DNA of 64,000 nt from assembly GCA_002633005.1 (NCBI GenBank), contig NMRA01000476.1:7340-71339 (forward strand), given 5' to 3'. The DNA is from Phoronis australis. Lineage: Eukaryota > Animalia > Phoronida. This document shows, piece by piece, positions 23,325-58,489 of this stretch. How positions within the stretch are numbered: the first letter of the stretch is position 1; each line of letters begins with the position of its first letter. The notes under the pieces are model-generated. The model was not told the DNA's origin. It worked only from the letters and a program-made list of their open reading frames with translations, and did no database searches. The translations under genes were made by a program, and so were the position numbers.

Positions 23325-23759
23325 ATGGATTCCAACATGGTTGAGGAGTGGCTTCGGTCACTTGATTTAGTGCAATATACTGAAGCATTTCTGGACAACG
23401 GCTACGACGATTTGGAAATTTGCAAACAAATTGGACAGCCAGATTTAGACGCTATTGGAGTTAAGATTAGTATACATAGACACGAAATTCTCAAAGCTGT
23501 CGCCAACTTACGGGATCAAGGTGCAACAGCAGTATATTTTACGTTGGAAGAGTTCCAAAATGGGGACGATTCGGGATTCCAGGAGAACAGCTCGTGCGAC
23601 GCGCACGCGCCATCTCCCGCCAGGCTGTCCGGCTGTTTTGACACGTACGGTTCAGGGAAAAATTTAGTGAAGTTTCCTAAACTCCAGTTGAATTTGATGA
23701 TCCAGAATAGACTCTTAGAAGAGGATATAAACTTGACGGATTATCCTTACTGCACTCCG
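23325..23759 (+). CDS. SAMD5: Exon 1: SAMD5-like N-terminal SAM domain + first half of duplicated module
   Basis: MDSNMVEEWLRSLDLVQYTEAFLDNGYDDLEICKQIGQPDLDAIGV...VYFTLE...LVKFPKLQLNLMIQNRLLEEDINLTDYPY closely matches recalled SAMD5. Start context aaaATGG. Donor gtaagt at 23760 (phase 0). Confidence 0.92.
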
Positions 23760-32700: not shown

Positions 32701-35700
32701 ATTTAATACAGACCTTATTCCCAGAATTGCGTACAGACTAAAAAGTCCTTTCTGTATGAGAAGACTATATGTAAACACTTCCACTGACCGTGAAAATCTG
32801 ATTGTGTCATATTTCCATGTTGTGGACAAAATTCTAACTGAGGCAAAACTTCTGCTGCGGCTGTTCTAGCAGTCATAATTGTTTCCATATCAGAATAGTC
32901 TGTACAAACTTAAGTACTCTCTACTAGATAAATTCAACATCTGATCACACCAACTTGATTTTTGATTGTTAAATGTAAACTGAAGTGAATAAACACGTGA
33001 TAAATATGCAGGTGTAATTCGTGCTGCGATGTGATCAGTCTAAATGTGTCAATGTCACCTGCATCATAACGAATGTATTTGGTTCCACTTGACTAGGCAC
33101 CAGTTTGTGTGATACACTCAGGTGCAGGCAGTGACTTGTGTGGTGGAGTTTACTGCCTGTCAGATGCTTGGTAAGCTAATAACCACTGGGTAAATAAACA
33201 GTGCCACTTGCATTTTTGCAGTTCAACTGTGGAGTGTTGAATTTTGTAGATAACCATTAGTCAAAACAAATCATGGGCAAGTGCAAACTGTGACTATAAG
33301 TTGGATTAATTAACGGTGTAAATGAGATTTATGATGGACAAAAACTGAGCTTCAGGACAGTATCACTCATTTTGTTGCCATGTCCTCAAATCTTAAGCAT
33401 TGTCAGGTGAATTCTTTGGTTTGTGTCAAAGTTAATTGATGCACACCCAAACATCAGCAGATTACTGCCTATAGTTTCAATGAAAAGTCTTGTTTTATTT
33501 TGCACACTGGATTGTTTCTTGATAAAACTTGTACCTTATGCTCTCTTCTCGCATTCTTAACAGAATGGGCAAACTTGTTCAGCCACGATGCAGCCGCTCG
33601 CTTTACGGTATGCCGAGGACTTCAACACACACTGGAAGGATGTCATGGAAAGAATGGACGACATCAAAAGAAAGAAGTTGATGTGCAGTGCAGATTCGGT
33701 GAGTACTTGTTGTCGTTTATGGTTTTCTGTATATGGTGGTCATGAGCAAGACGAAACCTTTACAAAGCTCTGTTCCAATGTGACATTATTTTGGTGGTTT
33801 GTTGTAATTGTAGTTTGGATTTTAAGGATGGGAGTCACATATGTCCCTGATGCCTGTGATGAGAAATTACAACAAGTTAAATTTTTTTTTTGTTAGAATG
33901 CTTTCATAAATTCCCAGTTGTCCTCATTATACTGCCATTGTATTTTAGCCAAAGAACACTAGCTCCCCCTCTTGGGATGTACACAATCAATGCACTGCAC
34001 AGAGTTCACCGCGTGGTGTTGCTCCTCCACTCCCCTCTAGTCCACCGGTAAGTAAATCAATTGTGTGTTGCCGAGAATCTTGTCACAACTTGTTATAGCT
34101 TGTAAAGCCTCCTTTTTGTACCTGCTTCAGGGGTTTGATAACCGATTTTCTTGATCAGCAACTAAATCTTCACTGCTTAATAACATGCTTTTACTGTCGT
34201 CATTATCAATCAATTTTTCCCCGCTTGCTCAGCTAATCACATTAGAGCTGTGCAGCTACTTTTTCCCAGTATACGCCCTCTAATTGATTTAGTCGCTGGA
34301 CTGAAACTAATGCTTGAAAATCGAACACAGCAAAATTGACTTGACCCATTTCCGCCAATTGTGCCTGACTCGGTCCCTCTCTACAGTCTTCCTCGACAGC
34401 ATAGTTATGTTAATTGATCACAATTAATCAGCATGTTATCTCTTGTCTGCCTAAAAGTGAGAATCAATGATGTGAATGAAAGAGGTGAATATTAATTAGG
34501 CAAATGTTGACCTCAGACACCGATGTCAGTTGATGCCCTAATGAAAGCAAATATCAAAGATGTTGTGAAACCTATGAATAGTGTCTTCACTTTGTGATGT
34601 TTTGACAACTGTTTGTCTTGTCTAAGTCTGTTTGTATTGTCTGAAATGCGGAAGCAATTTTGTGATGTGTCCCCTACATTTTGTCTGCTACTTCTGTTTA
34701 TTACCCCAAATTATAACTATTAGCGAACATTGATAACTGAAAGTGTTATAATACCTGTGAAACTCAAGGATAGAACGGGAATTCATCATTTCAACAGTCT
34801 ATGCCCAATGGGTGTTGGCTGCCTGAAGGTTTTTGATGAAACGAGAGAGCTGTCAAAGCAGATTTTTGTTCAGTGTTTACACATCTGAGGGATAGGAGAG
34901 ATCTGTGTCTTGAAATCTTATCACTGCTTGTTTCCCTGGTCACATGAATCACACTTTAGAATGGATTAAAAAGTGCCTTGGGCATAATCTTAAAACTACC
35001 CCTCAAGTCAGCAAGGGCTGACAACTCTAGATTGATGTCAGTTTTGAGTGCTGGGTCTACAATACACAGTCTTGTTCAGTAATCTTGTCTATTGTCAGAA
35101 CAAGTGGCTCTTGGAGACACTGATACTTTCAAATACATAACTCTGACTTGAGTTAAATTGTTTGACAAACATTTCTTTTCATGAATTTACCTGCAATGTC
35201 ACCACCAAAGTGAAGTTAGGGGCCAGAATTAGACACATATTGGCACTTACTTTCACACAAATGCCTTGCACTTCCCCTACCTTACGGGAGGCAGACGCAT
35301 TAAATAAGTCTTTGCAAACCCTGTGTTTGTATTCTGTAGTATTTACTTTTTGGATGAGTTGTCTGACATCCCAATACCCAGTGAATTGGCTACGATTAAA
35401 TTTGTCTTTCAGGCACTGAATCTAAAGATAAAGCATTTCTAATTCTTTTTATTGATACAATTGTCCCAGTTTAACACTTGCTTACACTTCATGCTTTTGC
35501 ATCACTGACAAATACATTTAAAGATTTTTTCTTTTTTCTGGTTTGTGTGCCTTTTGTGTCTGCAAAATAAGACATAGCTTACATTGTGGGAATTTTACTT
35601 TCACTGTTCATAGAAGAATTTGTCTGCCTAAAACTCAATTCCTTTCTCTTGCCTCGTGCTTGCCGTAGCATCTGAGCTATTCGTGGATATATAATGATGG

Positions 35701-38700
35701 CTACGACAGCCTTGAGGATGAAGTGCTCATTGTACACGCTGTAAGTCGCTTGGTGTGACCTCTGACTTCTGACATGACCCCTACATCAGGCTTTCTCCTC
35801 TCGACTTATTTGACTAAGCTTCATTTGAATTGGTTGTTTTGAAAAGGATTCAAATCAGAAAAAAAACAACTGTTTGGTGTGTTCAAGTTTCTCTGTATTC
35901 TTTTTTCGTTTTTGTGAGCTAGCCCAATTTTGTTATTATTTCATGTACCCTGTCTTAAAACCAACTACTGTCTCTTTGATGTTGCTGCTTCTGACTTCTA
36001 ATTGTGTAAAATTAAATATGTCACTGCAAAAGTTGTCTGAATCGTTTACATTTACGTTATGTGTACACTTCCAGTATAGCACAAAAACTTGCTGATTAAC
36101 TGCAATTAAGGAATCTTAAGCTCGGTAAAATCTTTTCAGTGTAGAATGCAATAAGGCGGACACGTGAAATTTTGCTTTTTCATTTTTCAAAAAAAAGCGC
36201 CAAACCGGTTGCTTTATATTTTAAGAGTTCTATACCATACCTACAACCAGACAATGTTCTGAGAAGCTGTGGGGATTCTCAATAATGTTAAAAGCTTTTG
36301 AAAATGAAAAAAAGTATAAATTTTGGCAATTATTTTTGTCCAAATATAGTGAGATATTATGCCTCTTGTATTTTTCCAGCAGTGGACCCACTCTGGTCAA
36401 GATGACGTATGTGCTCATGTCACACTACAGATTTATGTATATGTTCGACATGGCAAAGTGTTATTCATATACGGTATGTGCTTGGTATGGAACTCATGTA
36501 GAGTATCTTCTGATCATGCATTTTTCCATTTGCTTTATAGCCATCGTCAAGCCCCAGGGACTATACAATGCGGACAGTTTGCACCCCACGGTAAGTAATG
36601 CTCACAAACTCAAGGTGTGAAGAATGATCCAAATTTTACAGGGTTATTCTGTAGTAGACATCCATTGGTGTCAGACAATGGCAGATTTATGTCAACATGG
36701 TGAAGGAGTTATTGATCCAAGACAGGTGCAACCATGCATTCAATGGGTTCAATTTGACTAAACCCATTATCTAATTTCAGATTCTGTTTGTGTTTATCTC
36801 TATTCTAATGTGCAATGTTGTTTGCACTTGAATATGAGCTACAAACAGCTGATAGTAAGCAGCCTCACACAGATATCACACCTTTTCATGTTGTTGGGAA
36901 CAATTTTCATTGAGTTCTGACAATGGGCAGGTGGGCTGTAGGCTAATGAAATTTGATGCATCAGCACCTCACAATCAAATCCTGAAGGAGGCCTGTTTGC
37001 CAGAGTGCTTGCCAACATTCATTGACTAATTATCATGCTCTTGGCACCTTATTGAGTAGATTTGTCTGTTCCTTTTGTTACTTCAGGGTTCACAAGTAAA
37101 GTCAATCAGGTGAAGTTAGCTTTGATTCTGATCAGGAGTGCTTTAGCATTGGCAGGTGGCCATTTGGAAGTATTGTGTTGTGGTTAGAGATTAAAACACC
37201 TTGATGGCCATTAGAGCTTTACAGGCAGTACATGTCAGCTGGAGAGATGAGCGAAGACAATAATTGAGTGTGAAGACTGTTTGGGATTAGCAGCTAGTTT
37301 ATACATAAATTGGGACAACCCTGAACTGTAACCATGGCCCCAGTTATTCTCCTTGAGCATCATACATAATCCATTTGATTAGGGCAAAGATCTCTAAACT
37401 TTTTACCTTAGGGAGAATCCCCACCATATGTCTTTGTTTAGATTTGAGGGTGCTTTGTTTCTAGGAGCTTAATAACTCAGTTGTTAAAACAATTCTCCAT
37501 CTAGCGTCTAATTATTTATTTGATTTGCCCAGAAGATTGCTTGCTAACAATATAACCAATGAAAATTTAATCAAACTTGGAGATGGAACATGCCATAACC
37601 TTTTAGCGAATGCTTTATATGCCAACGATTTGGTTTCACACTTCAGCCACAGTGGGTCGTGTTACTGTTTTGACAGGTTGTGACATTGTTCAGTTTTCAT
37701 AACACTAGTGAATTATACATTGTCACCGCTTTCTCTTTTGTATCTCCTGTGAGGAAAACTTTAAATTTCAACCTTGTCAAGAGCTTTGTCATTCACTAGT
37801 AGCTTAGGTTGTCTGCATAAAATTGCAACTTCAATTGTCAACCTGTTTACATTGCCAGGTTGTCATATTTTGGTAACACTAGACAGTGTTCACTCTTTAA
37901 TATCCTTAGGCCACAGGCACTAATCTATCTGTTATCACTTGTGTGTTGGTAATATCAGTGCTTGGTGAAATATTCATGCAGTGTGTGTTGGCTTAAAGAG
38001 AACAGACAGTTTGTTGAAGACTTAGCTATATACTGTAAATTGTATGACTCGAAATTGATTGACAGATTTATATTGAAGGTACATTTGATTTGATATTTTG
38101 CCACTTTTCTGTGCTTTGCATTATTACTAGATAGTAGCAGGGTATATTCGAAGTTGCAGTGCTGTCATAAGACTTCAAGTTGTGTACACAATTCAACAAA
38201 ATCTTGACAAACAAATCACACGTGTTGCATAGATCTGGATAAATTGACAAAATTTTACCAAGCCTTCTCTCTCAGCCTGAGGTTTACTTAACTTTGTGTG
38301 AAACTGAAAGTGCATATTTTTATCCCAATCATACTCCTGTTGTTTACGGGGATGTCACTCGGGTTACGTTTTTCAAACCTCTTGCACAATTCATTGTTGT
38401 CATTTTCCGATAATGGGCCAATCTTTCGCTTGAACACTTTTTTAGTAAAACTGATGACTTTAGTGATGTTGTCACCATTTCGGTTTCATATTTGTCTTGT
38501 AGTAGGCAAGGTGGGTCTTCTATGAGTCGTTAGAAGTGAACCTGAAGGGGAAGATGAAGTGTTCCTTGCTAGGAAGTGAAATGATTCGTAATTCTCTTCT
38601 ACCGTTGCTTCAAAAAGTATTATAATTACAGTCTATGCACATTCTTTGTTTCCTCTGAAGATAATGATTGGAAATCAAGGAGCCCTTGTAATTAGTACTG

Positions 38701-41700
38701 AGTAACCGGAACTCATTTGATTGCTTGCTGTTGGGTGCAGTGGCAACGAACTAATAAGCGATTATGACAGACTGCAGTTTAATCAGCCGCCTGCTGAGAT
38801 GGCAGTGTTCCTGCATAATGGCCAAGCTTCTTAGTTATCACAGGACCAGACATAATGCACTAATCAGTGAACAATACTCTGTGGTAATGATGAAGTGGTC
38901 TCTGTAAGGCCTATCCTATAATGGTGATGCTGATTAATTAGCATTTATAACTAACAGGGGGCAGTTTTGTGAGGACCAATTACTGCCGATTATCTCATAA
39001 TGTCTGATTGAAGACGATGACTCACCAGAAACACGACTGGCTAGCTCTCTGTCAGTGATAATTTGTTATGTTATTGTTGTGACTAATCATTGATTTCATT
39101 TTCTTGCTAAGACAAACTGAATAGTACAAAAATGTCAAATGCATTTCTAGTTTTCTAGAGTGTATTACAGGTTAGCAATAGTCATTTCATTGTGATCTAA
39201 TATTTCTACTGAGCATCTTGAAGCAAAGTGGTCAAACTGCACTTCGCCCTGTTTACCTGATGAAGAATAAAGAAAATAGACTTTTCACTTTCATAAAATC
39301 GGTCTAGTAATATTTCATACCGTAAAAAGACCGTATCCTTTTGCAAACTAGAACACTGAGACCATCAGCGACTCAAGAAAACTCTTAAGTTTATTTTGGT
39401 TGTGCTACCCTAAAACTAAGAACTTAAAACTGACATATGAACACATTGCTGTTACTTGAGACCAACTTGATAAGTGTCAGTTTAAAAAAAATCATAATTA
39501 GATTTGCTATCTATGCATTTGTCAGGATAAGATGTTGACATATCTGTAGACCATCTATGTTGATATCTACAATTCACTATAATCCAAAGTATAATAGTCT
39601 TCATTGAGTTGTATTCATCACTCAAGTACAACACTGCTACAAAGTGGTAGTAGTAACAAGCTATCATCAGTGTTTCAACAGTCTACCTGCTAAGACGTTT
39701 ACACAGCACCACTTGACACAGGATTGTTAAAACATTTTAAGCTGCTCTCCACACAGACAAGGTGAAGTGAATGTTTTATAATGCCTATAAATTAGTTAGG
39801 AGGACATTCTGCTGTCTGGACATTAGCTCATCTTTTATTCATGACTTGGTTTGTCACTGCTAGTTTGAGTTGAGCTATTAGATTTAAAAAGAGGCAAGCA
39901 ACGAGAATAGTTATTATCGAATTCGACTTGCAAATAGAGGTTAGTTTCACTGGTTCATTGCATTCATATTTCTGTGGTTTGTTAGAAATTTAATTTCACC
40001 TGTAGTGTCCTCATCTTAGTTTCATTTCTGTAATGAAGTGATCAACATTCGAAGATTAGACATTGAAACTAGCTTGGTTTGCTTGTGAGATTGTCCTGAT
40101 GAAAGGTGCCAATATTAGGATCAATCAGTGCATGTCACTCCATTGTAATCTACAGCCAAGCAGCCATGTCCAGCTGATAAATCAGTACTACTACAAGCTC
40201 ACCCCAGATTTGTGAAGACCACTGACTACAAACTATGGGGCTTTAAGATAAACAGTTGTTTTTCTGACCGCCCACTAAGACTGTAAGGTCTGATTAAAAT
40301 GGCTACAAACAGTTGCAGTCTGCTATTGACTTAAAGTAAAGCTTCTGCAGTGGGGAGTTCACACTAAAATGGCCACACTGTCTGTAGCAATCTGCTGGTG
40401 ACCTAAAGCTTCTGCAGCAGGGAGTTCTGACTAAAATCAACAGGAGTTCACTAAAATCAGCCCGCTTTCAATTTGCTGAGTAATTGGAATTTCACAGTTG
40501 TTTGGATTTTGTAAGGGAAAACCATTTGACAAAGCATTTTCTTAAGTGATCATCCCTGCAGGTTAACAAACTTACCTGTGATGTAACTTTTAATCCCATT
40601 ACTAGCAGTCAGGGATTATTGTACAAGGAGAGCTGATCAATTAGTGCTCGAGAAATGTCTTTGTCTGCTAAATAGAATCATTAAAAGTGTTTTTTGTTGG
40701 ACAGTACTTCTGCCAAAGATATTAAGTTAAATCCCTGTTAGGTATTTTTAGAGGCGTCTCTAAGACAGATACCTGTCTCAACTGATGGCTTCTGTTGAGT
40801 CATTAATTAGATTTAATTATATCTTGGTCTAGTTATGTAATAGCCGCAGATTTTCTGATTGACATCAAGTTTAGTGGAAAACGTCTTTTGTGAGGCTTCT
40901 TTGGTGTTATGTGGGAAATTGTGCAGGCGACCAGCTTGTGACTAAACACCCACCAGTTGGGGGAAATGTTATTAGAACACTGACAAATGGAGTGCTAATG
41001 AGGCATTGTGCGCCTTAGATGGCTTCAGCTCCTGTGTGGAGAAAAATTCAATAGAACTCTGATGATGTTTTATAGATTTGCCGATAAGGTTTTATAAAAT
41101 CTATACTCCAAGTTGTAGCTAGTAATAAGTCTTCTAATGATAGTTGGGTTGCACCTGACTGTTGGGTGCTTCACAAATAAGAAAATTTGCTTTATTTAGA
41201 ATTTCAAATTTGTTCTCTTTATCTACAAACTAATCAATGCATTGGATGTTTTATATCTGAGAACAGTCTGGTTACATCAAGGATGATTGTTTAGATTTCT
41301 TATCATCATTTAATGGACTGTTGACTCCAGAAGGGTGTAAGGAATGATTCTTAATAAGTTCCAAAAATGTTTTGGACCAGCCAGTGAGACACATTAACAC
41401 GCCACCTTATCAACAATCTAGTTTGCCAGTCTCCACAATGTCTGACAATGCCCTTGGAAACTTTATGCTGGACCATTAGTTTTTGATGGAGGTAATCTCA
41501 GTGCATTAAGCTGTTCCTTCATTGTCCACCTGAATGACTAGCTGTTCTTGATGACTGCTTATAAAGATTGACTTCCATTTGTTGTTACCTATGCCTCTCT
41601 ATTTGTGGCGCCTCAATACCAACCTTAGAAGGTGCCGCCTGTAAGCACAGCTATTACCATTAGCAGTCAGCTGATGGTGATTACAGTCAAAGTAAACAGC

Positions 41701-44700
41701 AGTCTCTCTGGACAAAGAGCTGCTTGATATTGTACATAAAACCAGAGACACACATAGACCTGTTTTGGCTTGCACAATGATGTCTAGGGTTTACATAAAC
41801 TACAGTTGCTGCAGAAATAATAATCCATCTAAACATTGACACTTGGCCATATTGTCAACTGCAATGGATTACAGTCTGTTGATGAGAGGCCATCTAATAA
41901 AGTCATGGAAATTTATGTAAATATTGGGCCCCCAACAGAGGAAGTGAACCACATTTGGGACTATAATCGATGAATTCATGTTTTTAATGAAAATAGCTGG
42001 TCTCCCATATTCTAGGTAATTCGATTAACATTAAACCCATCTGAACCTTCCTTGCAGTTTACTGTGAAATTTGTCTGTGTTGGACAGAGTTTTTAGAAAT
42101 TCTGGGAGTTGTGAAAACAAAGGCATGTGCTTTGTGCACTTAGCAAAACGCTTTTCTGTGGATAATGTCTATAATGCCCGTAAAAGGGCTTCAAAATCAA
42201 TGTTATTTGAAATGTAAGCAACTGTTGTCTTGACATCAGTCGAATCTTATTTAGTTTTTATCAGGTGTTGTATTGAACACATGGTTCTGTTCACGTGTGA
42301 TTGTATTTTTTACCAGTGCCGTTTTAAACTGCCACTGGCACGATCTTGCTCCTAGCAGAATTAACTGTTTAAATTATTTAGCAAGGGAAATGTGAAACTA
42401 TTTTCAGTGTCCCACTTGACATTTAAAGCCACGTTTGGTCTACGCTTCTTTTGCTTCCTCAGCTACTGTGGGTAATTTCATTATTTTTTACTTAGGAGCC
42501 AGCTTATTTAATTTCCTTTCTTGAGGTCTCTCCAAAAATAACGTGGCAGTTTAACATGACTGTACTCAGCACTGGTGTGGCTGCGATTGTGAGGTACAGT
42601 GAATAGCTAAGCTCAAAATATTGTCATGGATTATCCAATTTCAGAATTCTAGCTAGTATATTTTCATTGTGTGATGTTTTTGTTATTCTTTTGACGTCAT
42701 CTTTTGAACCATCATTTTCCAATGAGCTGTTCATTATCTTTTGTTTTCAGTGTTATCTGTAGAATGTACCTAATTGTGTTCTTGAGCTCATCTGCCTTCA
42801 CAGAAATTTCCTGTCAGCACTCAAATAGTAAAGCAAATCTCACCTGAGGAGCACCAATCAATTACCTGTCTCCATCCTTTATTATGCCAGACCCTTTTGC
42901 AATTGTTATGGTGCTCTGCTCCAATTGCCTCATGTCTACACTATTCAGGCATTTTGTTGATGAAAGGAGTGATTGGTTATGAAACTATTTGTCTAGATAT
43001 GTTTAAAAATGGGTACCAGTATTAGAATGAACAATTAGTACTACTCTGTGGAGCCTGAACAGGGATTCCTGTATAAGGAGCCTGAACAGGGATTCCTGTA
43101 TAAGGAGCCTGAACAGGGATTCCTGTATAAGGAGCCTGAACAGGGATCCCTGTATAAGGAGCCTGAACAGGGATCCCTGTATAAGGAGCCTGAACAGGGA
43201 TCCCTGTATAAGGAGCCTGAACAGGGATTCCTGTATAAGGAGCCTGAACAGGGATTCCTGTATAAGGAGCCTGAACAGGGATTCCTGTATAAGGAGCCTG
43301 AACAGGGATTCCTATGTAAGATTTTGTCTTGAAGGGTGCCATTGGATTAATAAATCACTTGTAATAATATCTGTTCTTATATCCTGTTTGGATTGATTAC
43401 ACCATTTTTGCAAATTCTTGTGAAATTAATTCCCAACTTTTTCCTCGTTTGAATGATTTTACTTTATTCACGACAACTCATGTACTATACTACTTAACTA
43501 AATATATAGCCATTTCTTCAGAATGGTCATCAAATCAATCATTTGTTGACAGAAAACTACTGTAGATGTGACCACTGTCTCCCATGTAATGTATATTGAG
43601 CTGATGTATGAGCTGATGTACACCAGAATGGAGTCATTGTTGGATCAATTGGTGTTCAGTTGCTGGTAGGGTAGCAGTCTGGTGAATATTGCATGCTGGG
43701 TCATACAAAATTCATGGCTTTAGGGATGGTCAGTTGACATTCTCTTACTTGTTAGAAATGTTTAGCCATATGGTGAGTTACTGTTATGAATATTAGATTA
43801 ATGGCATTTTATTATCTCAGATGAGTGGTGGTCAACACACTGAGGGGTCTGCACTACCGATTACATAACACAAGTTTTCATTACTTAATTAGTGTGTTGA
43901 CATTCGTAATTTGGTTGGAGAATACTGCAGCTGTTCTAATCTAAATGAAGTTTAAATATCATTTCCAGATTGAAGCAACTCTGAACACAATGCTGCTCTG
44001 TTGCTAAAGTACCCCTCAATTTTACTCCTAGCTGTTTAGAGGCTATACATTTGTTGGAGTTCTTACACAATTTTAGAACAGTCTTGTCATGAGGTTGTTC
44101 ACCATGCAAGTCAATAGACACTGTTCCATGGATCAGTATCTGCCAACTGCTCTTGTAATTACGTAATGTTATGCCAGTAGTCATTAAGGTATTCTGTGCT
44201 CAATTACAGCTTACAATGGAACACAATGATTGTGTGAGGATTGCAAACAATTGGACTTGTGTTGTGTAATGTTTGAATGTTGGGAAGGATATAGGTAATT
44301 GAGAAATATTGATTGTGTTTCAGCAAAAACAAACTGTGGATAATAGGTGGGCTCATTTACTCTATAGCCAGAATGGATTTGTGCTATTAAAAACAAAAGA
44401 AACACCAAAAGGTCTTGATTGGCTATTTCTGTTGTCATTTACTACCTATATGTTGAAGAGTTAGTGAGATGGTTACGTACTATGGTCCTTGTTTTTTGTG
44501 CTAACGTAAGGCATTTGTTTTGATTGCATTTTGACAGTCATTTTTGCACTTGATATGCGCCTGTACAAGAAACAATCCCAACTTAACAGGCAGATTAAGG
44601 GATGATAGCAATGGAATGATTAATAGGCTCCACCTGGAGGCTACCTGCCCTATCACTGGCAGGTGTTCTCGATGCAGTGATCCCCTGACAGTACGTTCCC

Positions 44701-47700
44701 ACCAATCTGAACAATGTAAGCTCCAAGTTTGATCCCTGCCCATGTAATGTGCGTGTGCGTCACTGCTTGCGGTGCTGCCTACTGTTGTCTAGTACAGGGA
44801 TATTTCACAGCTGCTGTTTCTATTACTAGGTGTTTGTTTGCTATACTGTGCTGAATAGCTCAAACAGCAGCTTGGTAAAGTAACTGAAACACTTGCCATT
44901 CATATTTTGCCTTTCAAGTTTTCACACCTGTTAACGATGACAATTAAGCGTGTTTAATTTTTGAGACTTACGAATTATTTCTCTGATTACAGGTCTGGTC
45001 ATTCCTCTGGTGGAGACAGTCCATGCCCAGACACCACAGGTAAGATCATTTGTCACTGCAGAGTTGTATAGTTGGGGCGTTGATAGCTTTGAGAATTCTT
45101 AAAAAGTAGTTTTTCTCAGTAGATCATAGTCTGAACAGAATTAGACGTGTGTGTGTATGCGTGCGTGCGGACGTGCGTGTGGACGTTCCACTAGTAATAG
45201 GATGTGTGTGAATGGGTGTGCGCGCTCTACTAGTTATCAGCGTATTTACTGTAGTTTTTGTTCCTGATAATATTTTTTGTTGTTATACATCATTGGAACT
45301 ACACAGGCTTCCCCAACTGGCACATTTGATGTGTAATAAACTTAGTGTTATGTCCATTTGATAGCCATTGTGTTCTGTTGTTAATGACCAGCCAGCTTAT
45401 TGTTGCTAAGCACCTTTGCAAAACCATGGTGTCCATGCATTAATACTAGTGTTTGAGAAAGTATTCCTTCACGTTATTTAGTCTGTGTAGTGCCAGTGGT
45501 GCCACGGTGGTACAGTTTTCACAAGAAGTCATAAGTTATTTGGTTTATTCATGTTATTAATATGTCCAGTGTCTACCATTATAGTCAAATAATTGCTTGT
45601 CATCAGCATCTTGACGCCAACGTTGTGTCTCACCTGCGTTTTCAGGTAGACATTCCCTGACAGTAACTCCACCCACAAAGTTAAAAAGGGAGCATTTTTA
45701 TGAGATATATTTCAAACTAACATAGTTTGCCACCAGTTAGAACCAAATCTTTTCTGCTGCATTGATTTTTCATAGAATTTCATATTCTTTAATTTTGACA
45801 CTCCATTTGTAGTTAATTTTCAAAAATTGTTTCATGAGTCAATTTTGCTGTAAAGTCACAAATCTCAGTTTGATGCATTATATGAGAGTTGACAGTCATG
45901 AAAAGCTGGTTATTGATCACCCTGGCTCTTCAAAAGAGCCGACAGTTAGGGCTCCCTGTTATTATCAACAACAGCCTGCAATCCTTGGAAAGTCAAATGG
46001 CTGATATCTGCTTCCACAAACAGACCAACACATAGTCCTGTAGACACTGATACTCAGACATTGTTTGGGTTATTTTTAATGCACAATTGGTCACAAAAAA
46101 TAGCATTACGTTTGCTGGCTATTGTGTCTGAATTCCAACTGTTCATGATACTGGCTTAAGCCTTTGGGAGCTATTGTAAAAAACTAAAAGGCGGAACGAT
46201 TTTAGGAGCCGTGTGTGCAGGGTATATTTGCTCTTGCAACATCATGACAAAAACCAAATAACAGTGGGTCAACTTCGGGAAAACAAGACTTGTCGCCACA
46301 TTGCTTGGGAGTTGCTTGTTTTCTGTTTGCCTGAGAAGTGTTTACTGTTTACACAGTGATGTTTTGGGCTCGTTTTACTGTTACATTCCACAGGCTGGCT
46401 TGTGTGTGCCTTATTTGTGCCACGGTTTGAATTTCTCAATGTTTGACACAATTCCTTTGTCTTTTAGTGTGAATCGCCAGGTCACTGGCCAGTGACCTGG
46501 CGACTCTTACACTCGTGGGAAACATTGTTGAACAACCTGTAACTAACCATTCTAAATCTGCTTTTATAGAAAATCCTGTCTGTTAGGTGTTTGAATGGTT
46601 TCTGGTAATTTGTATAGTAACAATTTAGCTTGAGTCCTTCGAAATTGATATTTTTGTCTTTGAAGGGTCTGTGGCATAATACACATTGGAGCACAAAAAT
46701 GTAATTTTTAAATTCAGATTATATAATAAAAATGAACATCAATAAGTTATTGCATTAGTAGAGTATTTTACACAGACAGGTTTTATTACATAGCTTGGTA
46801 AAATTTAACCATTGCAGCAATGTAGTCAGCTTCCGAAAATATAAAATTGTTATCAATAATTAAAGAAAATTTACAGTTATACATAAGTTTCGTTAAACAA
46901 ATGTGTTGATGCAGCCCCAGAGTCACAACTGTCCACATTTGTGAAAGTGACTTGGTTTCCATTGCAAACTTGGTCATGTTCACCTGTATTTGACATTCAT
47001 TAATCCACCGTCTTTGAAGTTTCTCTGTTGAGGCAGATTATAGTGTTATTTTATTTGATTTCCTACAAACACCTCTAATTATGGGTCAACATTTTGCAGC
47101 CACATTGGCTGTGTTACCTGTTTGTGTTGGCTTGCAGGCTGGTAACCTAAAGAGTTTGATTGAATTCTTTTCTAACTGTTGTGAACCAACTATGTGTGAG
47201 TTCAGGATTGATTTGTGTGTACTGTGCATTATCCCCCCTGGAATATGTTTGTTGTCTGCTGAACTTCAAAGTGATACTTTATTTGGACAATTTCCCCGTC
47301 TCTATTGGCCTCCAGGGATTAAACTGTAGGGAAATCCCTGACTGTGCAAATGAAGGTTGTAAACATAGTCACATATAGTTATCCAAAAATGTTGGGTTTG
47401 AAAAACTGTTTCACTGTCATCATATTTAAAAATTTGAGTTGTCTCTGGCCAGTGTTAGAGTAGTAAGCAGTTTGTGACATGACCGTTGCCTTGTTAAATG
47501 TTTACAATCATCCCTGTATGAGGACTATAGGTGTTTTTCTTAACTTATTTCAGAAAAAAAAACATTGCCAAAATATCCTTTTTTTTCTATTTTCTGTGGT
47601 AAACCGTTGAAAAACTTGCAAATAATGAAAACTTAACCATATGTTGTTTTTTGATATCTGTGTAATGCAAACCACAGACTAAAACAAACAGACTAACATT

Positions 47701-50700
47701 TTCTTAATCTTTGATTTTCTTTGAGAAATTTGACAAAATAAAATCTCCCTTGTTTGCCATGTTGAATTCTAAAATGAAACCATTGCTCTTTGTGTCTTCA
47801 ACTTACGATAGTTTTCTCATAGCTGAGACAGTCTCAAGTTTATACCCAGTTCTAATCATCCAAAGACGCTTACAAGATTTTTTCATGCTGCTCAGCTGTT
47901 TTCATTTACATTCATATCCCTTAAGTCCCTTGGTAGTCTGCCCTAGTCTGCTTAAACTCATTTGTTTAATGTTTTCAGAGCTAATTCAATAACCATTCAG
48001 TAATGGCTCTTGTTCAAGCCATTGACACATGTACTGAGCTGGTTTCTAAAATACAATTTTGCTCTTTCATATTGAATTATCTGCAAGGTTTTCATCTTCG
48101 CATGATCAAATATTTGATTTTACTATCCAATCTACTGTGGTTGGGGGTGGGGGGGGGTCATTGGGTTTAACGCCAACAACTAGGAATGTAGTACAAGACG
48201 AAAGTAATGGGACAAAGTATCATTTCCCAGTCACGACAGCTAGTCCAGTGATCAGGAAAAATGACCAGCAATAACTGTTATGGCTGCAAAATTCTAATTC
48301 AGCATCTTACTAACATTCCTGTTAACTCCTGGTCATTCTCAATCATTATGGAAGACTACTCTAAACATTAATTTGACTACCACTCAATCATCATGACGAA
48401 ATCCGAGTAATTCTGCGTTTTCCGAATATTGCACTTCCCGGCCTGAATGACCAGACCTCTGTTTTCAAAATCATAGGTCTACCATTGGATTTTATTCACT
48501 ACAGACTTTTAGGGGATTTCGAATGTAGATTGAAATACATTCATGCCATGACATGACCCATTTAGAACCTATAAACAACCACAGTGTTTGGTCTCTATTC
48601 ATTTTTGTCCATTAAGAAGTACCAGTGCCAGGGTGGCCATAGGTAGTGCATAATGCATTTGTTCAATTTTCTTATAAACCAGTAATAAAATGTCTGCCAT
48701 GGATAATTAAGAAATTTCCTTCTTTGCAGGACTATTTTTTCTATTATTGAATGCAATACCGTTCTTGTACAATGAGGCCTAGACGCTGAATACTTCCCCA
48801 ATCTTTTTAATTCATCAAAGAGTGATGATTAACAATATGTATGCTTTCTCCAATACATGTTTTTCTTTCGAAATAGAAATGAGCTATATACACAATAAAT
48901 CACATTACTCTATTGTATTGTTACTTTTAATTGTGAAAACATATCCACAGTAAAAAGCTTTTGTCAGTGTTTGAAAGTTAAACCTATCTGTTATAGAACA
49001 CGATGGTTCTAGACGAGGCTCAGGCATCGGCAGGTTTTTCCGTGGTACAATTCGTCGATCGGCACGGAAGTACTCCTACAAACAACACCAGGGGGACCCT
49101 CTTGCAAGTGAAATTACGATGCCTGAAGAGGAGCGTATTGAACTCATGCTCATGGTGAAAGAAGGCAGAATCAGCTTAGAGGATGCTATGTCTAAGGTAA
49201 GGGATGTCTCATTGTGTCACTGTGCGTAGTTTGCTAAGTGATTTAAGTTGCAAGTGTACTTCCCAAAAATACTGGTATTGTACAAGAGTTTAAATGAGTT
49301 CCAGATCGCAATCTCTTGTATCTAAGGATTAGTCTTTGAAAAGAATTGTTCTCTTTCTTCATTTATGCCATGTTAGCCTCATACTCAGCATCACCTCGTT
49401 TGAAGACTTATCTTGAATGGCCTAAGTGTTCACACCAGTAGGTCTCAACAGTGTCATTGTCTGATAGCCTCTCTGTTGATTGGTCTGTTCTGCTGAGTGT
49501 TTATATTATGCCACTCCATTCTATTTATAAATACTCAAGCAACACTTCAGTGTTTATCTCATGAAGGAGATAAAAACTTGTACTGTGGGCAAGTTTCAGG
49601 GTTAAGTTACCTTTGTTTGTGCTGCTTGCTGTGATCAAATGATCCCGGCTTCCTGTTTTTGAGCCCTATTTTGATCAAGGATGTTAGATATCTGCTTTGT
49701 TGCAGTAAGAGACATTGTTGCTGGTTTGGTTGACATTTAGTTGGCTTTCTTGTTTGCAGCTTAAAAATTACGAAGATGCTCACCGACCTCAAAATGAACA
49801 CAAAGAAAATAAAAAAGACAAAAGTGGAAAGGTAGGAATTGTGTATTGTTACACAGTTTCAGCGAATTATATTATGGAAAGACCTTTTACGAAACTTAAA
49901 TAATGTCAACTACTCTGAATTACAGGATTCAAAGTGCATGACTTCTGTTTATTTTATTCAGCTGTCTGTTTGCATTGTTAGTCGGAGATTAGTTTTAATA
50001 CTCAAATTTTGTGCCATTGCTTTTCACAACTGGCTGCTTCCACTGGACTCAAGCTGGGCAATAAATATTTTCACATTTCATTTTTCAAGCTGTCTTCACG
50101 ACGGAAGCGAAGGAATGGAGACAAGCGGACCCGCAGCCAGTCTGGTAAGCCTGTGTGCAGTACAGTTTTCCACTACTTGTTTGCCATTGCTTTTTCTCTA
50201 TGAGATTTTAGGTCTTCTGTAATTATAGTGTAGAAATGATTTCCAAAGAATCATTGTGCAGTTTAATCAAGAACGCCTTTTCAAAACATCTGCTTCTTAT
50301 TTCATTTTTCTAGCACATAAAGGTTAATGTTTTTCTGTGAAATTGTGTGTCTTGTTTAACAAGAACATCCTTTCAAATCATATTTTTCTTGTTATTTCAT
50401 GTTTCTAGCATTCAAGCTCATTGTATTGCTTTGGAATTTTGTGTCCTGATTCTGCTCTTTTTATATAATTTATGCACTCTGATGATCAAATTAACTCTAT
50501 ATAAGTGTTTTAATGTAACAGCAGTGTGCCTGTAGCCATTTGCTTAGGTTGCCAAAAGGTCATGTGGAATAGCCAAGCACTGATATCAGTAATGTGCACA
50601 GCCTAGATTTCATTCAGGTCTGTGATTAATTCTGTTCAATGACACTATGACTCACCCTCGTGTGGATCGTAATAAATGAAATTGTCTGGCGTTCCACATT

Positions 50701-53700
50701 AATGCTCATCGTGTTATGCCTTGTTCTATTATTGGATTCTCACATTATTCCCCTGTGAGTTTCATCCTTTCCCAACCCAGTGGCTTAGCTAAATATCATC
50801 ATAAGGTTGGGTAAAAGTTGAAACTATTGCCAGTGCTCATTGTGCAACATCATAGGCAGTAATGAGCTACACTGTGTCCACCAGGTGGCACTGGTAAAAA
50901 ACACGTTACGGTCACTTGTTTTGTAGTAATGAAATGTCCTCCAATTTCAATAGTTTAGCTGCCAAAATTGAATAACAGATAAAATGCCCAATTCTGCGTA
51001 TAATGATTGGCTTACTGAGTGGATGCATTTCTACAGGAAGGAGGTTTGTTACTCTAGTGCCACCTTGTGAATTTTGAGTTATCCATTGACAATATTGTGC
51101 CAAATGAAATATTGTCACTGTCCAATAAGTAATATAGATGCAATTGAATGCTGTTTTGTATTGTATTATATAATATTATATGCATAATTCAAATAAGTCT
51201 TTAACTTTTTTCTTGTGTTATTTCAAAGCATTGTTTTCTCCACAGATGGTGGTAATGTGCGCTCCTTGAGCTGCAGTCCATGTCGAGGGTTCAGTGACCT
51301 CAATGACCTTTCACGGGAAAGCCCCGCATCACGACGGCTCAACAACATGTCTCCTGCTCAACAAGGTGGCTTACAGTGTGTACGTCAGCGCTCGTTTGAG
51401 TCCGGTGCTCTCCCAGCTCACCTGCGAGATCCCTTGTCCAGGAGTAACGCTGGGGTTATTCGCTCAATGCCCAATTCCCCTTGTCATTCATCACGGACCA
51501 GCTCAGTCAGCTCTGTCGGTAACATCTCGCCTATGTCTGTCAGGTCAGACACTAAGAGTTCTCCTCCATTGCCTGAGAGACAATATTCACAGAAAAATAT
51601 TCCTAGCCACAATATACAAATGCAAGAAACACCGAGTCATAAACAAGTGTCAAGGACACGTTCAAGTTCCCCGAGTGTACACCAGCTTAGTCATTCATCA
51701 TCACCAATCAGTGACCGTTTTGCTGCTGCCAGTGGCTTTCTTGCATCACAACAAGCAGCCATTGCCCAGTCCTCCTCACCTCAAGTCGCTAGGCGGGCCG
51801 TTCAGGTAACTTTCACCACTGAAGATCCTCCTGCCTTGCCTCCGAGGAACAAGCCCCAGTCCCCGCACACACGTTCTCATGCCAAAATAACCCACGCCCA
51901 GGTTCACTCTACAGGCACGGACTCTCTGGAAACTAGATCAGTTGTTGAGTCTGACAGGTCATCCGTACAGAGCCCCCTGGAAGATGACACAAGAAGCATA
52001 TCCACAATGTCTGTTGGATCTGACATGTCTCCAGTGTCCGAAAGGAAACAGAAGGTGCTTCATGGTGTACGAAATCGATCGGTGAGTAAATGGAGAACTA
52101 GTGACATCTATTTTTCTTCAACAAAATCATGATTGTTACACCTTCAGCTTACGATACTATCAGTTCTTTTCTAAATTTGTAGGATTTGGTGCAGTCTTGC
52201 ACATCATTTATATGGTGCTTAAATTGGGTAAAATGGCATAGATGTTGATAGGGCATCGGACACTTTTTGTACTTGCGTCTTTTTACTTGCAGTGGCGGAG
52301 TAATAGCTCCTGTGGGGAAGAAGTGAACTCATCAGATTATGAAGATCAGGATGAGTTTGATCAAGTGAGTTAACTTAGCCAAAATTAGATGAACTTTGAG
52401 CTTTGGAAAGTACTGTAAAAATCCTTACTTTTGGACATTGAAAAAATTACTGAATTTTTGTTTTTGGCAAGTGTTTATAGTAATCTTCAGCAACCAAGTT
52501 TGAACATTTTCAATAGTTCAACCAAATTGTGATAGTTTTTGTTTGAAAAGGTGTTGCTAATACTGTAGACCAAGTTTGCAAGGTGCTTGAATTTCTGAAA
52601 ATGTACCTAGTGAACTTTGATCTATTGTAATTGTGGTCTAGACAGATAAACAGTATTGAGTTTCTGGTAATACCCATCTGCTTGTCGGAAAGTGCTATCT
52701 GTTTTCAATTGTCAGACATATTTTGTATTTATGTGTGGAAATATAAAGTTACCTGAAAGGTGACATGTAACTTAAGACATGCTTTGAGGGGACATTGTTA
52801 GTCTATGATGACTTTATGGCCCAGTGATAACACTCTTTTGGATAATAAATCTGACATCAAAGAGTCACCTGCTATTTCTTTGATCTTCTCTGGTAATTGA
52901 AATGCCATTAGATATTCATGGCTATTCTCTTGTGAAACCCCTGAATTGTATTCGTCAACTGGACTGGTCCATCTCTGAGAAAGTTAGTTTTATGAAAACT
53001 ATAAAAAAAATGATTTTACACAGCTCTGTGTTAACGTTTACTTTTATTATTCAATATCTTAACTCTTCACTGACTGTTAATGATGTTGTAAAGATGTCAA
53101 CTGGCAAAAAGTGATTTACACTAAGATAATTTTATGTGAATTTCAAATTGCTGAATCAGTTCAAGAATTTGAGAGTGAGAGATGCTGTACTCATTTGTGG
53201 TACACAAAATGTATTTTTACTGAAAAAAAATCATTATTTTCAGGATCTTGAGAGGTCTGCCATCCACAGAGAGAGTTTCAATGACAAACTGAAGAATGAA
53301 GTGCGCAAACATTTCTCCCAGATACCGTCCCTCAGTATGACCAAGGAGGTAAGGATGTTAATCAGTTGAGTTCTTTCTGCCTCAACAAAAGTGTTGGTTA
53401 ATGGTACCCGATGTGACCTTCTAACAAGTCTTCTTGTTTACAAGTAAATGGTTTTTACACACAGTTACTAGGAATTGTTTCCATGTTTTTACTGTGTTAA
53501 TTGACACATGACAGTTTATGGCAGGAAGTTCTCTCCCATTGACCCAGACAACTGGAAGGTGTTGAGTGAATAACAAGGTCAAACAAAGCACTTATGCCAC
53601 CTTTCAGTTAAAACTACATATGAAAGTATGGAATGGAAATCAATCTTTAGTCATTTTCTTTTTTGTGTTGAAATTTTTGGAAAGATATCTGAAATGCAGG

Positions 53701-56700
53701 GGTTGATTTAATGTGTCCAGCATTATGTAGATTTCACCAACAAACTTTGACCATTTCCACGTGGGGCTGCTCGATGAGGTTTTGCAATCATAAATTCAGA
53801 AATAGAAAAGACAGTACTATATTTTAAATGAAAATACCAGTACATGTGTGTATTGGAATGATATACAACAATTAAGTATAAAATGTATAATAAGACCAAT
53901 ATATATTAATAATTTATTAATACATGTTATTATTGACTATTTGTCAGATCATGGACGTTGCCAACAAGCATGCCTCAGGCAGTAGTTCCTGTGACAGCGC
54001 CCCCAGTAGTTCATCATGCAACAAACGCTCACACAGTTCAACGTCAACGGAGGAGGACTCTAACCAATCCAGTGGGATTGTGGGAAGGGCCAGAGCCGTG
54101 GCAGACTATGTACCAGATGACCACGAAAAAGATCGTCTAACTTTGAAGGTAAGACGAATGAATCATAAGTTGTTAATTGATTCAACTGAAAAGGTAAAAT
54201 GCAAATAATGATGACAGCATTTTAGGAACTCGTTCCTTCATACAAAAAATGTTTCACTTAATATACTTCTTTACTATTATGTTTGTAGAGGGGTGATGTC
54301 ATCAGTGTGATAGAGAAAAATCCTTCCGGATTGTGGACAGGGGCACTGAATGGCCACACGGGCAAGTTCAAACTAGTCGATGTGGAGATAATCTCAGATG
54401 GCTCACCAAGGCTATCACGGAAGAATCTCAAGCACTCATCAAAGAAACGATTCTCCAAACGCAGTAAACCGCGAACACTCGAAGAACTCCTTAAAAGACT
54501 GGGACTGGAGGTTGGTATATGCTCAGAGAACTTCTATAAAATTAGTTTCACTTTGTAACCTGAAATTTAAAATGGATTAACAAAAGACAATTACACAAAC
54601 TTGATCTTCGATTTTACAGTGCTCTGATGAAACTGTGCAGAGATCAATCGTTAGTATTGTTGTGTTGTATTTAACCTCTTGCTGACGTGTCTTTTAACGG
54701 TTTCTCTTCAGTCACTGACGCAAGTTTTCGTCCAGAATGGTTACACCAACCTTGAGGCATTCAGTGAGTTAGAGAACAATGACCTAGATGACCTGCGTAT
54801 TACTAACCCTGAGCAGCGAGCCAAGCTGTTGACTGCTGCTGATCTTGTCAATGATCTGGATTATGACAGTAAGTTGGAGATTTGTTTAATAAGTGCTGAT
54901 GCTCTGAGCGGTTTCTTTCATTTTGTATGTACAAGGTTAGGACATGAGCTTCCCAGGGATAATACAGTAACTGATCAGGTCTCATTGTCAGTATTTGATA
55001 TGGAAGGTGTTTGATCTCCGTGTGGACAACTAAATTAGTAAATACAGTAAATACTGTTACTATTGAAAATTTTGGACAGTCTCTTCACTTTGCTACAGTG
55101 AAAGCAGATGTTATTTACAAAATTCAATGTGATCTCAAGACTCTGATGCTAATTAAATTTTGCTGTCTTTAGACCTCGAGTGTGCCTAACTGTAGAGGAA
55201 AGTGTGATTGCATGCAATGAAAAAGTGCGTCTGAAAATTAGCAAGGCATTCTAAGGCATATAAAGTAGTTTTTGTTTACATTCTTTTCTGTATGTTTCCA
55301 GCTCCTGATTCTCCAGAGATCACTCCCAGGAACCAGCTGTTGGATGTTACTAGGTCGCACGTAACTTCATGTGACTCACCACGCCGCGACTCTGGCTGTT
55401 ACGCCAGCAGTGAGAACCTAAAGGAGCGATCGCCACCTAGCACAGTGGGAAAGTCGAGCTCTAAGTGTAGCAGTGCTTCTGAAGAGGTCGCTGCTATCAA
55501 CGGCTGTGGCAACATTCCTCCCAGTGATGTAGATACAGAAGTGCAAGACACCTGCACACAAACTGGAAACACTTTAGAGAAACTTGATGAAAATAAAGAA
55601 AACCAACTGACCCCTCCTCTCAAACCCAAAATAAAGCCCAAGCCTAGTAGAGCAGTTTCCATGACGACCAGTGCCACAGTAACCTCACCCACAGTTGACA
55701 ACTTCACCTCTGTGGTGTCCCCTAGTCGAAGTGCTAAAGAGTATCCACCTGTTCCACGTAAAGCGAAGCCTCAGGCCCCCGCCAGGAGTGTGTCACTCAA
55801 ATCTCAGGTCAACATCGTCACGTCACAGGCATCATCATCATCATCGTCAACCCCATCAGGCTCACCGTGTCACGTTCCAAAAATGCATCATTCAGCTTTG
55901 TCTTCGCCAATTCACGCTAGCAACAACAGTCAGTCACTTCACGTGACCAAAGGCCATCCCGTGGTGCTGCAGAGTTTTGCCAACTTAGCTACGCCTCCCA
56001 TGTCGCCTCAGGGTCGGCAGCGCTCCAAGCCACCCGTCTCTCCCAAGGGGGCTGCTGGTCATATAGCATCTCAGAGGCAAGCATCTCGTCCTAGTGGAAC
56101 GTCCATTGAGAACCTTGTCATCACCAAACTCCAGCAGGAAATGATTCAATTGACTGAAGAGCCTTACACAGATATGGTAAGTTTTTTGCACTCACTTTCA
56201 CTTGTTTGTGTGAACTGTCTTTGAGTAATTCTTATAAAGTTACATTTGCTGAAGTCATGTAAGTACAATCTTTATATGCCAACTATCACTGATGTTAAAG
56301 CTCAGCTTTCTCACCAGTTTATGTCTGGGTGATTTGAAAATTAAATTAGATTTAGTTGGCTGTAGTACGTTGTAGAAAGACTTCTCCTATCATCATTAAC
56401 TGTCCTCCTCGGTTCTAACAAAAACCTTTACTTTCTTTCAGGCTGGTTTCTGTGGTATACCTCCAGCACTTGTACTTCGTTACGCTGAGGAACTCGGTCG
56501 ACAAGACATCCGCAGTATGGCCAATGCGATGGAGAATGTTCGCTGTTTACAACTCAAGTCCTTGGGGCTGATTGCAGTGAGTTTAGATGATTATTATAGT
56601 GTGCTGGTTAACAGATGAAAAGGATTTGGAAAGTACTGTTCACCTATGGAAATCTGTTCCAGTAGATTTGGAAAAAATGTTTGACTCAGATCTGTTTAAA

Positions 56701-58395: not shown

Positions 58396-58489
58396 CAATT
58401 GACATTTTAACATTGGCTTCTTTTTGTGAGTAAAGCAATGATATACCTCTTCGTTTTCACAGACTCTATTGCCAAGCATCATAACAGTA

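Follow-up and report, generated by a model that had tools for sequence, protein, structure and literature searches.

An internally duplicated SASH1/NUB1 homeodomain-like domain in a phoronid SASH1/SKIP-family gene and the likely ancestral nature of the human SAMD5-SASH1 transcript

The stretch of DNA analyzed here (the window), 64,000 nucleotides of Phoronis australis contig NMRA01000476.1, contains one gene of the SASH1/SKIP family with two homologous copies of a SASH1/NUB1 homeodomain-like domain, each predicted to be a three-helix bundle and each interrupted by a phase-0 intron at a matching codon. We are fairly confident of this reading as a whole, in which the copies likely arose by a single duplication before cnidarians and bilaterians separated, the human SAMD5-SASH1 'fusion' likely represents an ancestral isoform, and the module likely acts in docking together with a SAM domain.

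The gene in the window and its two module copies

The peptides that an earlier note on this DNA had quoted for the two copies were all found in the window sequence on the + strand, where the note had placed them. In tblastn comparisons with 13 relatives, the blocks of the SASH1/SKIP family mapped in order along the window, SH3 being followed by SAM, and by this collinearity the gene is assigned to the SASH1/SKIP (SLy) scaffold family. Vertebrate SASH1 (SLy) and insect SKIP (Shal K+ channel interacting protein) share with it the SH3-then-SAM order, the RDSGC motif and the collinear blocks. The window gene has the full SAM-copy1-SH3-SAM-copy2-SAM layout, whereas the insect proteins examined (SKIP) lack copy 2 and SAM3, and mammalian SASH1 in its canonical form is without SAM1 and the first half of copy 1. 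PF12485 (SPIDER) was seen on vertebrate rows only; it matched neither the single, unspliced window ORFs scanned nor the invertebrate relatives. The features are as follows:

23325..23759, +, coding part of the SAMD5-like exon 1: SAM1, linker, helix 1 and loop of copy 1 (SAM_2, E 5e-14; donor GT confirmed by reads)
23334..23513, +, SAM1 (domain match; Tyr27 and Asp40 kept)
23565..23579, +, DDSGF motif, unconserved and outside the module (present in 1/238 relatives)
23670..23759, +, first half of copy 1: predicted helix 1 and loop up to PY+3 (copy alignments, predicted model)
23760..33563, +, phase-0 GT-AG intron of 9804 nt interrupting copy 1 (RNA reads, 6 in one run and 2 in another)
33564..33698, +, exon 2, 135 nt: second half of copy 1, predicted helices 2 and 3 (reads, alignment, predicted model)
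33699..33948, +, intron of 250 nt 3' of exon 2 (4 RNA reads in one run)
49002..49196, +, conserved middle segment common to SASH1/SKIP relatives, start approximate (tblastn of relatives; read joint at the 3' end)
54030..54510, +, SH3 region in two exons, about 54030-54148 and 54289-54510 (tblastn of relatives; read joints)
54712..54870, +, exon with most of SAM2, 3' end approximate (SAM match, tblastn, reads)
55385..55399, +, RDSGC motif, family-conserved, 240 aa upstream of copy 2 (in 234/238 relatives)
56087..56176, +, first half of copy 2 at the end of a large exon (copy alignments, predicted model; GT follows 56176)
56177..56441, +, putative phase-0 GT-AG intron of 265 nt interrupting copy 2 at the same codon as in copy 1 (splice signals and homology)
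56442..56576, +, second half of copy 2, exon of 135 nt (AG/GT ends, alignment, binned read coverage)
56821..57132, +, last coding exon: SAM3 and stop codon (SAM match, tblastn of relatives)

The proposal that a SAMD5-like exon is joined to a SASH1-like exon within a single gene was borne out by same-species raw RNA reads, eight of which, from 2/4 runs, carried the 23759 to 33564 splice; four more, from 1/4 runs, carried the splice from 33698 to 33949. Elsewhere, RNA reads were piled on a repeat near 58400-59500.

Comparison of the copy-1 and copy-2 families yielded a profile-profile probability of 98% (E 1e-13) and a score of 70, while the highest score was 18.3 in 100 column shuffles and 8.4 with a reversed profile. 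The two window copies themselves gave a Smith-Waterman score of 51, which none of 20000 shuffles reached. With significant profile similarity and a predicted three-helix bundle for both copies, neither a lack of similarity nor a difference in fold, the two outcomes that the earlier note had set against its own claim, was found, and the internal duplication stands. The common intron position was confirmed as well: in the window both introns are phase-0 and lie three codons past PY, as judged by splice signals and, for copy 1, by reads. In a tree of the copies (68 columns, no outgroup), 24 copy-1 and 20 copy-2 rows were split by one branch with support 99/99, Hydractinia being present on both sides, and one cnidarian protein carries both copy 1 and copy 2. 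Both copies thus likely descend from one duplication predating the cnidarian-bilaterian split.

In the window the exons at 33564-33698 and 56442-56576 do both measure 135 nt, are in phase 0 and are bounded by AG and GT, but their equal length is rejected as a relic of that duplication in view of the indels between the copies and of unequal lengths in relatives. In the alignment, copy 1 has two additional residues before LRYAE and copy 2 one additional residue after it, so the equality reflects offsetting indels. The vertebrate copy-1 exon has 43 codons (129 nt), with the donor signature there in 38/42 vertebrate-type ORFs; the copy-2 segment has 44 residues in 13/13 of the relatives listed, and the vertebrate exon is likely 132 nt long. 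The copy-2 donor signature was also present in two herring ORFs.

These lengths bear on the larger unit that the earlier note had envisaged, in which a whole SAM-DSG-module cassette was duplicated and left equal 135-nt exons behind. Both motifs it named, DDSGF (23565) and RDSGC (55385), are present, and SAM1 and SAM2 are more alike (mean identity 34.5%) than either is to SAM3 (26.9% and 24.3%), which fits a duplication of a SAM domain plus the module. However, this value may be ordinary for the SAM class, since the comparison contained no outgroup SAM domains. A DSG precedes copy 1 in just 1/238 relatives, which rules it out as a component of the repeat. RDSGC, found in 234/238, lies 240 aa from copy 2 in the window and 280-365 aa from it in relatives, and copy 2 immediately precedes the third SAM and accompanies that domain instead of SAM2. 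We therefore regard duplication of the entire cassette as improbable and retain a duplication of the helical module.

Identity and predicted fold of the module

The module is not new: as judged by sequence, both copies are the already-named SASH1/NUB1 homeodomain-like domain, and the notion of a module without a name was not upheld. Profiles built from the relatives' copies, to whose copy-1 and copy-2 families the window copies align, matched residues about 6-69 of NUB1 with E values of 2.5e-5 (copy 1) and 1.2e-4 (copy 2). NUB1 entries were the only PDB sequences under E 0.001 for both profiles, the next matches being at 0.27 and 0.041. UniRef applies the label 'SASH1/NUB1 homeodomain-like' to a protein with copy 2 and without a Pfam SAM match, and PF26285, probably the accession of this domain, was precomputed on 120/120 rows listed in each of three relative listings. 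NUB1 was not seen by architecture among the best 150 of 306 matches in a representative protein search. It differs from the window gene in having a single copy of the domain, ahead of its UBL domain, whereas a single protein of the phoronid gene would carry two, the coding sequence of each being interrupted by an intron at the matching codon. In addition, window copy 1, unlike the NUB1 domain, depends on the choice of the first exon.

Models of relatives' sequences predicted matching three-helix bundles for both copies, with helices at 4-18, 37-48 and 52-64 for copy 1 (pLDDT 75) and at 5-17, 38-48 and 52-69 for copy 2 (pLDDT 80). Their best structural matches were homeodomains and winged-helix proteins, with Z scores of 5.8 (rmsd 2.7, 56 aligned) and 5.2 (rmsd 3.1, 68 aligned), weak values level with those of unrelated helical folds. 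The structural matches listed for the two models included no NUB1 and no SAM domain, and an Atlas search gave no usable match for the module. The kind of these best matches, together with a report of overexpressed SAMD5 in nuclei (PMC5384680), would be in keeping with a genuine helix-turn-helix that binds DNA or RNA and through which these scaffolds act in the nucleus. Yet Z did not exceed 5.8, Foldseek returned no match with E < 0.001 for either model, and the mean net charge of copy 2 is -5.8. Moreover, the WFxN motif, the signature of the homeodomain recognition helix, occurred in 0/15 copy-1 and 0/17 copy-2 sequences. Nucleic-acid binding is accordingly highly improbable in our estimate, and the module is more plausibly a unit that binds proteins.

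The module also bears on a region of human SASH1. AlphaFold2 packs residues 1092-1170 of the human protein against its last SAM, and a 2026 review of SASH1 describes this segment as a 'SAM-like helical bundle' and possibly an artefact (PMC13467429). Copy 2 occupies the same position, directly before the last SAM (residues 1084-1160 in the 1243-aa SASH1 of a seal), and likely is that bundle. As copy 2 is conserved between animals as distant as a cnidarian and a primate, an artefact is unlikely. A SAM-like nature of the module was considered and rejected: against the profiles of SAM1, SAM2 and SAM3 hhalign gave probabilities of 0.1-0.7%, so that copy 2 resembles none of them by profile (<1%), and three helices are predicted, not five. 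Given its conservation, its N-terminal twin and the match to NUB1, we regard the bundle that precedes the final SAM in SASH1 as likely real and not SAM-like.

Joined gene models and the human SAMD5-SASH1 transcript

A SAMD5 exon joined to SASH1 exon 2 was found in public gene models of lamprey, fish, frogs, reptiles, birds, platypus and one monkey, forms which annotation pipelines had already built and which in vertebrates are predicted gene models, not observed proteins. All 98 of the 98 new rows (birds, turtles, lizards, a snake, platypus and Sapajus) had the order SAM-copy1-SAM-copy2-SAM with the junction at the matching place, and the joined region was 91% identical between reedfish and monkey. 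In one relative listing mammals made up 3/120 of the rows listed and placentals 1/120, and mammals may thus seldom have the join or have it poorly annotated. The SAM of a primate SAMD5-type protein is identical to window SAM1 at 41/63 residues, Tyr27 and Asp40 being kept, and both SAMD5 and window exon 1 encode the first half of copy 1; unlike in short SAMD5, however, splicing connects window exon 1 to the downstream exons of the gene. The view that vertebrate SAMD5 and SASH1 each hold half of the domain is thus right for short SAMD5 and canonical SASH1, but not for the joined isoforms annotated across vertebrates. Taken overall, the earlier reading holds for the ancient duplication, the common intron position and the single gene, and fails for the equal-exon relic, the DSG unit, the unnamed module and the halves-only vertebrates.

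In humans, SAMD5 exon 1 has been found joined in frame to SASH1 exon 2 in 4/5 chordomas without a change in copy number (PMC5352057), and the junction is listed for two samples, a tumour and one typed 'Pituitary', at low read counts of 2 and 6 (PMC11852724 Table S11), where both coordinates are offset by 321,136 from the chordoma ones. The patients from whom the reference pituitary samples were taken had undergone surgery for suspected tumours (PMC11852724). This junction, which spans 880,747 nt (881 kb) as against the 9.8-kb intron of the window, likely corresponds to the first intron junction described here. The transcript has been termed a translocation, a rearrangement or a possible oncogenic fusion (PMC5352057, PMC7653769, PMC6489307, PMC11852724, PMC13429291), is catalogued in cancer fusion databases, and was suggested to play an oncogenic role as late as 2026; it was absent, along with other fusions of the same study, from a paediatric brain tumour set (PMC6489307).

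We consider that the human transcript very probably arises by the same conserved splice, with no DNA rearrangement needed, and that it is likely the ancestral long isoform because joined models occur across vertebrates, a cnidarian has both copies, the junction is in frame, copy number is unchanged and a reference pituitary sample contains it. Were it instead a tumour-specific oncogenic fusion that matches the ancestral arrangement by coincidence, its reports in chordoma, neuroblastoma, meningioma and a CNS tumour, the suggested oncogenicity and the higher SAMD5 expression of carriers would be accounted for. But raised activity of the SAMD5 promoter alone would be expected to increase the long isoform, carriers are mostly low-grade or non-high-risk, copy number is unaltered, the reference pituitary junction is identical, and gene models of healthy animals, lamprey through monkey, contain the join, all of which makes a tumour-specific event very unlikely. 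A fission in progress deserves more weight, though we still think it unlikely: here an ancestrally single gene would have become separate SAMD5 and SASH1 genes in placentals, the 881-kb join being a leaky vestige with little or no protein. The single placental row in 120, the low junction read counts, the length of the span and the separate first exon that canonical SASH1 uses in seal, herring and other species fit this. On the other hand, the second half of copy 1 is nearly unchanged in one canonical mammalian SASH1, which, like the reedfish-monkey identity, is expected under selection on the whole domain, and the in-frame transcript recurs in several human sample sets.

A transcript that cancer fusion databases carry is therefore likely a normal isoform that has been conserved, with consequences for the interpretation of RNA fusion reports. 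The repeat by itself is modest, since neither the domain nor the gene family is new. A literature search, with most subscription papers outside its coverage, found no paper making the point about the isoform or the bundle. A further step, which in our judgement could equally well prove right or wrong, is that human SAMD5 and SASH1 are one gene whose SAMD5-led transcript corresponds to SASH1 at its ancestral full length, yields protein in normal tissue and couples a high-affinity Eph-binding SAM to the scaffold, the first-exon choice making or breaking a folded junction domain. Work with the canonical form of 1247 aa would then have used a truncated isoform.

Pairing with SAM domains and possible function

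The SAM of SAMD5 binds Eph receptor SAM domains, with Tyr27 and Asp40 on its mid-loop surface (PMC5993539), and window SAM1 keeps both residues of this Eph-binding type by sequence. Splicing of the SAMD5-like first exon to exon 2 would complete copy 1, so that a SAMD5-led form would combine the Eph-binding SAM with an intact copy 1, a canonical SASH1 start would provide neither that SAM nor helix 1, and short SAMD5 would have the SAM and helix 1 only. The choice of the first exon probably acts as a switch in this way.

The homologue in NUB1 offers no function for the module, because deletion of the NUB1 domain left FAT10 degradation unaffected. The module is likely a protein-docking unit paired with a SAM domain; more tentatively, and with somewhat less than an even chance, each copy may pack on or tune the adjoining SAM and bind proteins, not DNA. 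Complex prediction for SAM1 with copy 1 from one fish protein, run without an alignment, was uninformative (score 0.00). For copy 2 the pairing was close: SAM3 without copy 2 occurred in 0/243 long proteins, both were missing together in 120/385 proteins, mostly of insects, and copy 2 without SAM3 was present in 11/385 of this redundant, query-chosen set.

Structure, homology and identity of the two module copies

A sequence check of the window bore out the peptides and coordinates of the earlier note, which had described an intron-split module occurring twice in one gene. The gene is of the SASH1/SKIP family and has the layout SAM1-copy1-SH3-SAM2-copy2-SAM3 (SAM1 to SAM3 being its three SAM domains). 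In both copies the intron lies at the same position, three codons past PY. The exons concerned are as follows.

23325-23759, + strand, coding part of exon 1, ending at a donor joined by RNA reads
33564-33698, + strand, exon with the second half of copy 1, 135 nt, canonical phase-0 ends
56442-56576, + strand, exon with the second half of copy 2, 135 nt, canonical phase-0 ends

Copy 1 is produced as a single reading frame, because stranded RNA reads join 23759 to 33564 (6 reads in run X2, 2 in X4) and 33698 to 33949 (4 reads in X3); the three runs belong to one study under the same species label, and about 1/5 of each was read. The predicted joints of copy 2 were placed by splice signals and alignment to relatives.

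The claim that the two copies are homologous was confirmed. In the window their Smith-Waterman score is 51, a value reached by 0 of 20000 shuffles, and comparison of the family profiles, built from 15 (copy 1) and 17 (copy 2) non-redundant sequences out of 238 relatives (a set built so that every member has copy 1; 125 also have copy 2), revealed significant similarity (probability 98%, E 1.3e-13). The profile-profile alignment was repeated with 10 and 11 sequences, and the profile-profile score was 70 versus at most 18.3 across 100 column shuffles. AlphaFold2 models of relatives' copies contained three helices at matching positions in both, and the intron site falls in the loop that follows helix 1. 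A tree built on 44 rows and 68 columns, with no outgroup, had one branch (support 99/99) separating copy 1 from copy 2, and the cnidarian Hydractinia had one copy on each side; the simplest reading is a single duplication predating the cnidarian-bilaterian split.

The module had been thought possibly unnamed, but it is a real feature whose domain and family are already known. Both copy profiles match NUB1 residues ~6-69, the sole PDB sequences with E < 0.001, and a 283-aa fish protein carrying copy 2 is named 'SASH1/NUB1 homeodomain-like domain-containing protein' in UniRef. PF26285, probably the accession of the SASH1/NUB1 homeodomain-like family, is precomputed on all relatives among the matches listed. 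A SAM-like module was ruled out by profile comparison, and the homeodomain signature is missing; fold searches gave weak helix-turn-helix matches and nothing better.

The intron site and the extent of the duplicated unit

The equal 135-nt exons, previously regarded as a relic of the duplication, are a coincidence of indels, because two additional residues precede LRYAE in copy 1 and one additional residue follows it in copy 2. In vertebrate-type ORFs the copy-1 exon spans 43 codons and is followed by Val in 38 of 42, which reads as the trace of a GT donor, and insect ORFs continue in frame past this exon; the copy-2 segment, its end placed by homology, is 44 residues long in all 13 relatives shown. 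Of 147 new representative proteins, 115 fit a pattern describing how exon 2 begins, 105 of them without the first half of copy 1, and in 79 of these 105 Gln directly precedes exon 2, the residue that a CAG acceptor leaves when genomic DNA is translated. Among these sequences are vertebrate-type as well as insect-type ones, and two herring ORFs depart from the full protein just past the same position of copy 2. The intron site is old.

The proposed duplication of a SAM-DSG-module unit was not supported, as a DSG motif lies upstream of copy 1 in just 1 of 238 relatives; RDSGC is present in 234 of 238, where it precedes copy 2 by 280-365 aa (240 aa in the window). Joint duplication of a SAM domain and the module is a possible though unproven alternative, in line with the somewhat greater closeness of SAM1 and SAM2 to each other (34.5% identity) than to SAM3 (26.9% and 24.3%, respectively). 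RDSGC (window 55385-55411; Y usually next in relatives) resembles a beta-TrCP phosphodegron. The term 'TrCP' is absent from a 2026 SASH1 review (PMC13467429).

One gene across animals and the human SAMD5-SASH1 transcript

The single-gene model was supported by the copy-1 splice in RNA reads and by joined models from insects to the monkey Sapajus. The SAMD5-like exon is joined to the rest in public models of insects, chelicerates, molluscs, an annelid, a brachiopod, a nemertean, crinoids and hemichordates, in a lamprey gene model, and in at least 120 models of fish and frogs, all among the matches listed. SAM-copy1-SAM-copy2-SAM with the same-site junction was found in 98 of 98 new rows among the matches listed (birds, turtles, lizards, a snake, platypus and Sapajus); mammals were 3 and placentals 1 of the 120 matches listed, out of 1617 in total. 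The notion that vertebrate SAMD5 and SASH1 each hold half of the domain is true of canonical SASH1 (seal, herring), in which exon 1 is replaced and the second half of copy 1 alone kept, but not of the joined models found across vertebrates.

Among the relative proteins collected (P-numbers), insect SKIP models (P0001-P0118) and an Artemia protein (P0262) are without copy 2 and SAM3, and chelicerates and a myriapod keep both. The Hydractinia cluster (P0497, P0257) carries SAM1, both copies and SAM3, with no SH3 or middle SAM detected in the domain scan. Short proteins with SAM1 and a whole copy 1 (P0370; P0511-P0514, blowflies; P0396, octopus; P0246) are named SAMD5 or uncharacterised; P0375 differs, with half a copy. 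Short SAMD5-type forms may have arisen several times.

Of 5 chordoma samples, 4 carry an in-frame junction of SAMD5 exon 1 with SASH1 exon 2, with no copy-number change (PMC5352057), and the transcript occurs in 3 of 48 neuroblastomas (PMC7653769), four grade I meningiomas (PMC6489307) and a CNS tumour, where an oncogenic role was suggested (PMC13429291). A pituitary study lists the transcript for two samples, a tumour and one of type 'Pituitary' (2 and 6 reads across the junction); its reference tissue was histologically normal, taken at exploratory surgery (PMC11852724). Both coordinates differ from those in chordoma by 321,136, so the junction is the same and only the genome build differs. 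Exon numbers, together with monkey and seal models, suggest that the human and window junctions are equivalent, so that a tumour fusion can probably be re-read as an ancestral isoform. In the accessible, mainly open-access literature, including PMC10252437, PMC5384680, PMC10453029, PMC12069159 and PMC6997181, we found no publication that unites SAMD5 and SASH1 in a single gene or reports the repeat; the transcript may already be marked as ordinary read-through in subscription papers or in supplements of fusion surveys. Fly SKIP is called an ortholog of SAMD5 in a preprint (10.1101/2025.06.12.659376).

Possible function and neighbouring features

The SAMD5 SAM binds SAM domains of EphA5-8 and EphB1-4 and requires Tyr27 (PMC5993539); SAM1 of the window retains Tyr27 and Asp40. 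In the 2026 review, a predicted bundle of helices, termed 'SAM-like' and located at 1092-1170, packs on the last SAM of SASH1 and is called a possible artefact, and its main text contains none of the terms SAMD5, NUB1 and homeodomain (PMC13467429). Within 385 long relative proteins (a redundant set), SAM3 occurred without copy 2 in 0 of 243, copy 2 without SAM3 in 11, and 120 had neither. We tentatively infer a protein-docking helical module paired with a SAM domain; a first-exon switch probably adds the Eph-binding SAM and completes copy 1 at once. The NUB1 homologue gives no functional clue, because its deletion left FAT10 degradation unaffected (bioRxiv 10.1101/2024.06.12.598715). The domain assignment probably settles the nature of SASH1's unexplained helical bundle.

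A block at 49002-49196 is conserved between vertebrate SASH1 and invertebrate relatives; the sole Pfam match near it was weak, SHOCT-like and below cut-off (reedfish protein, E 0.0015). Other features are listed below.

5066-5779, + strand, TFIIE alpha subunit gene, upstream neighbour (PF02002, E 1.7e-28)
6370-6792 and 7350-7688, + strand, further open frames by the TFIIE alpha gene
43050-43320, open on both strands, a 27-bp unit present ten times, the copies 98% alike, between known exons of the gene
~58400-59500, multi-copy repeat just beyond the 3' region of the gene, where partly matching reads pile up deeply on the opposite strand
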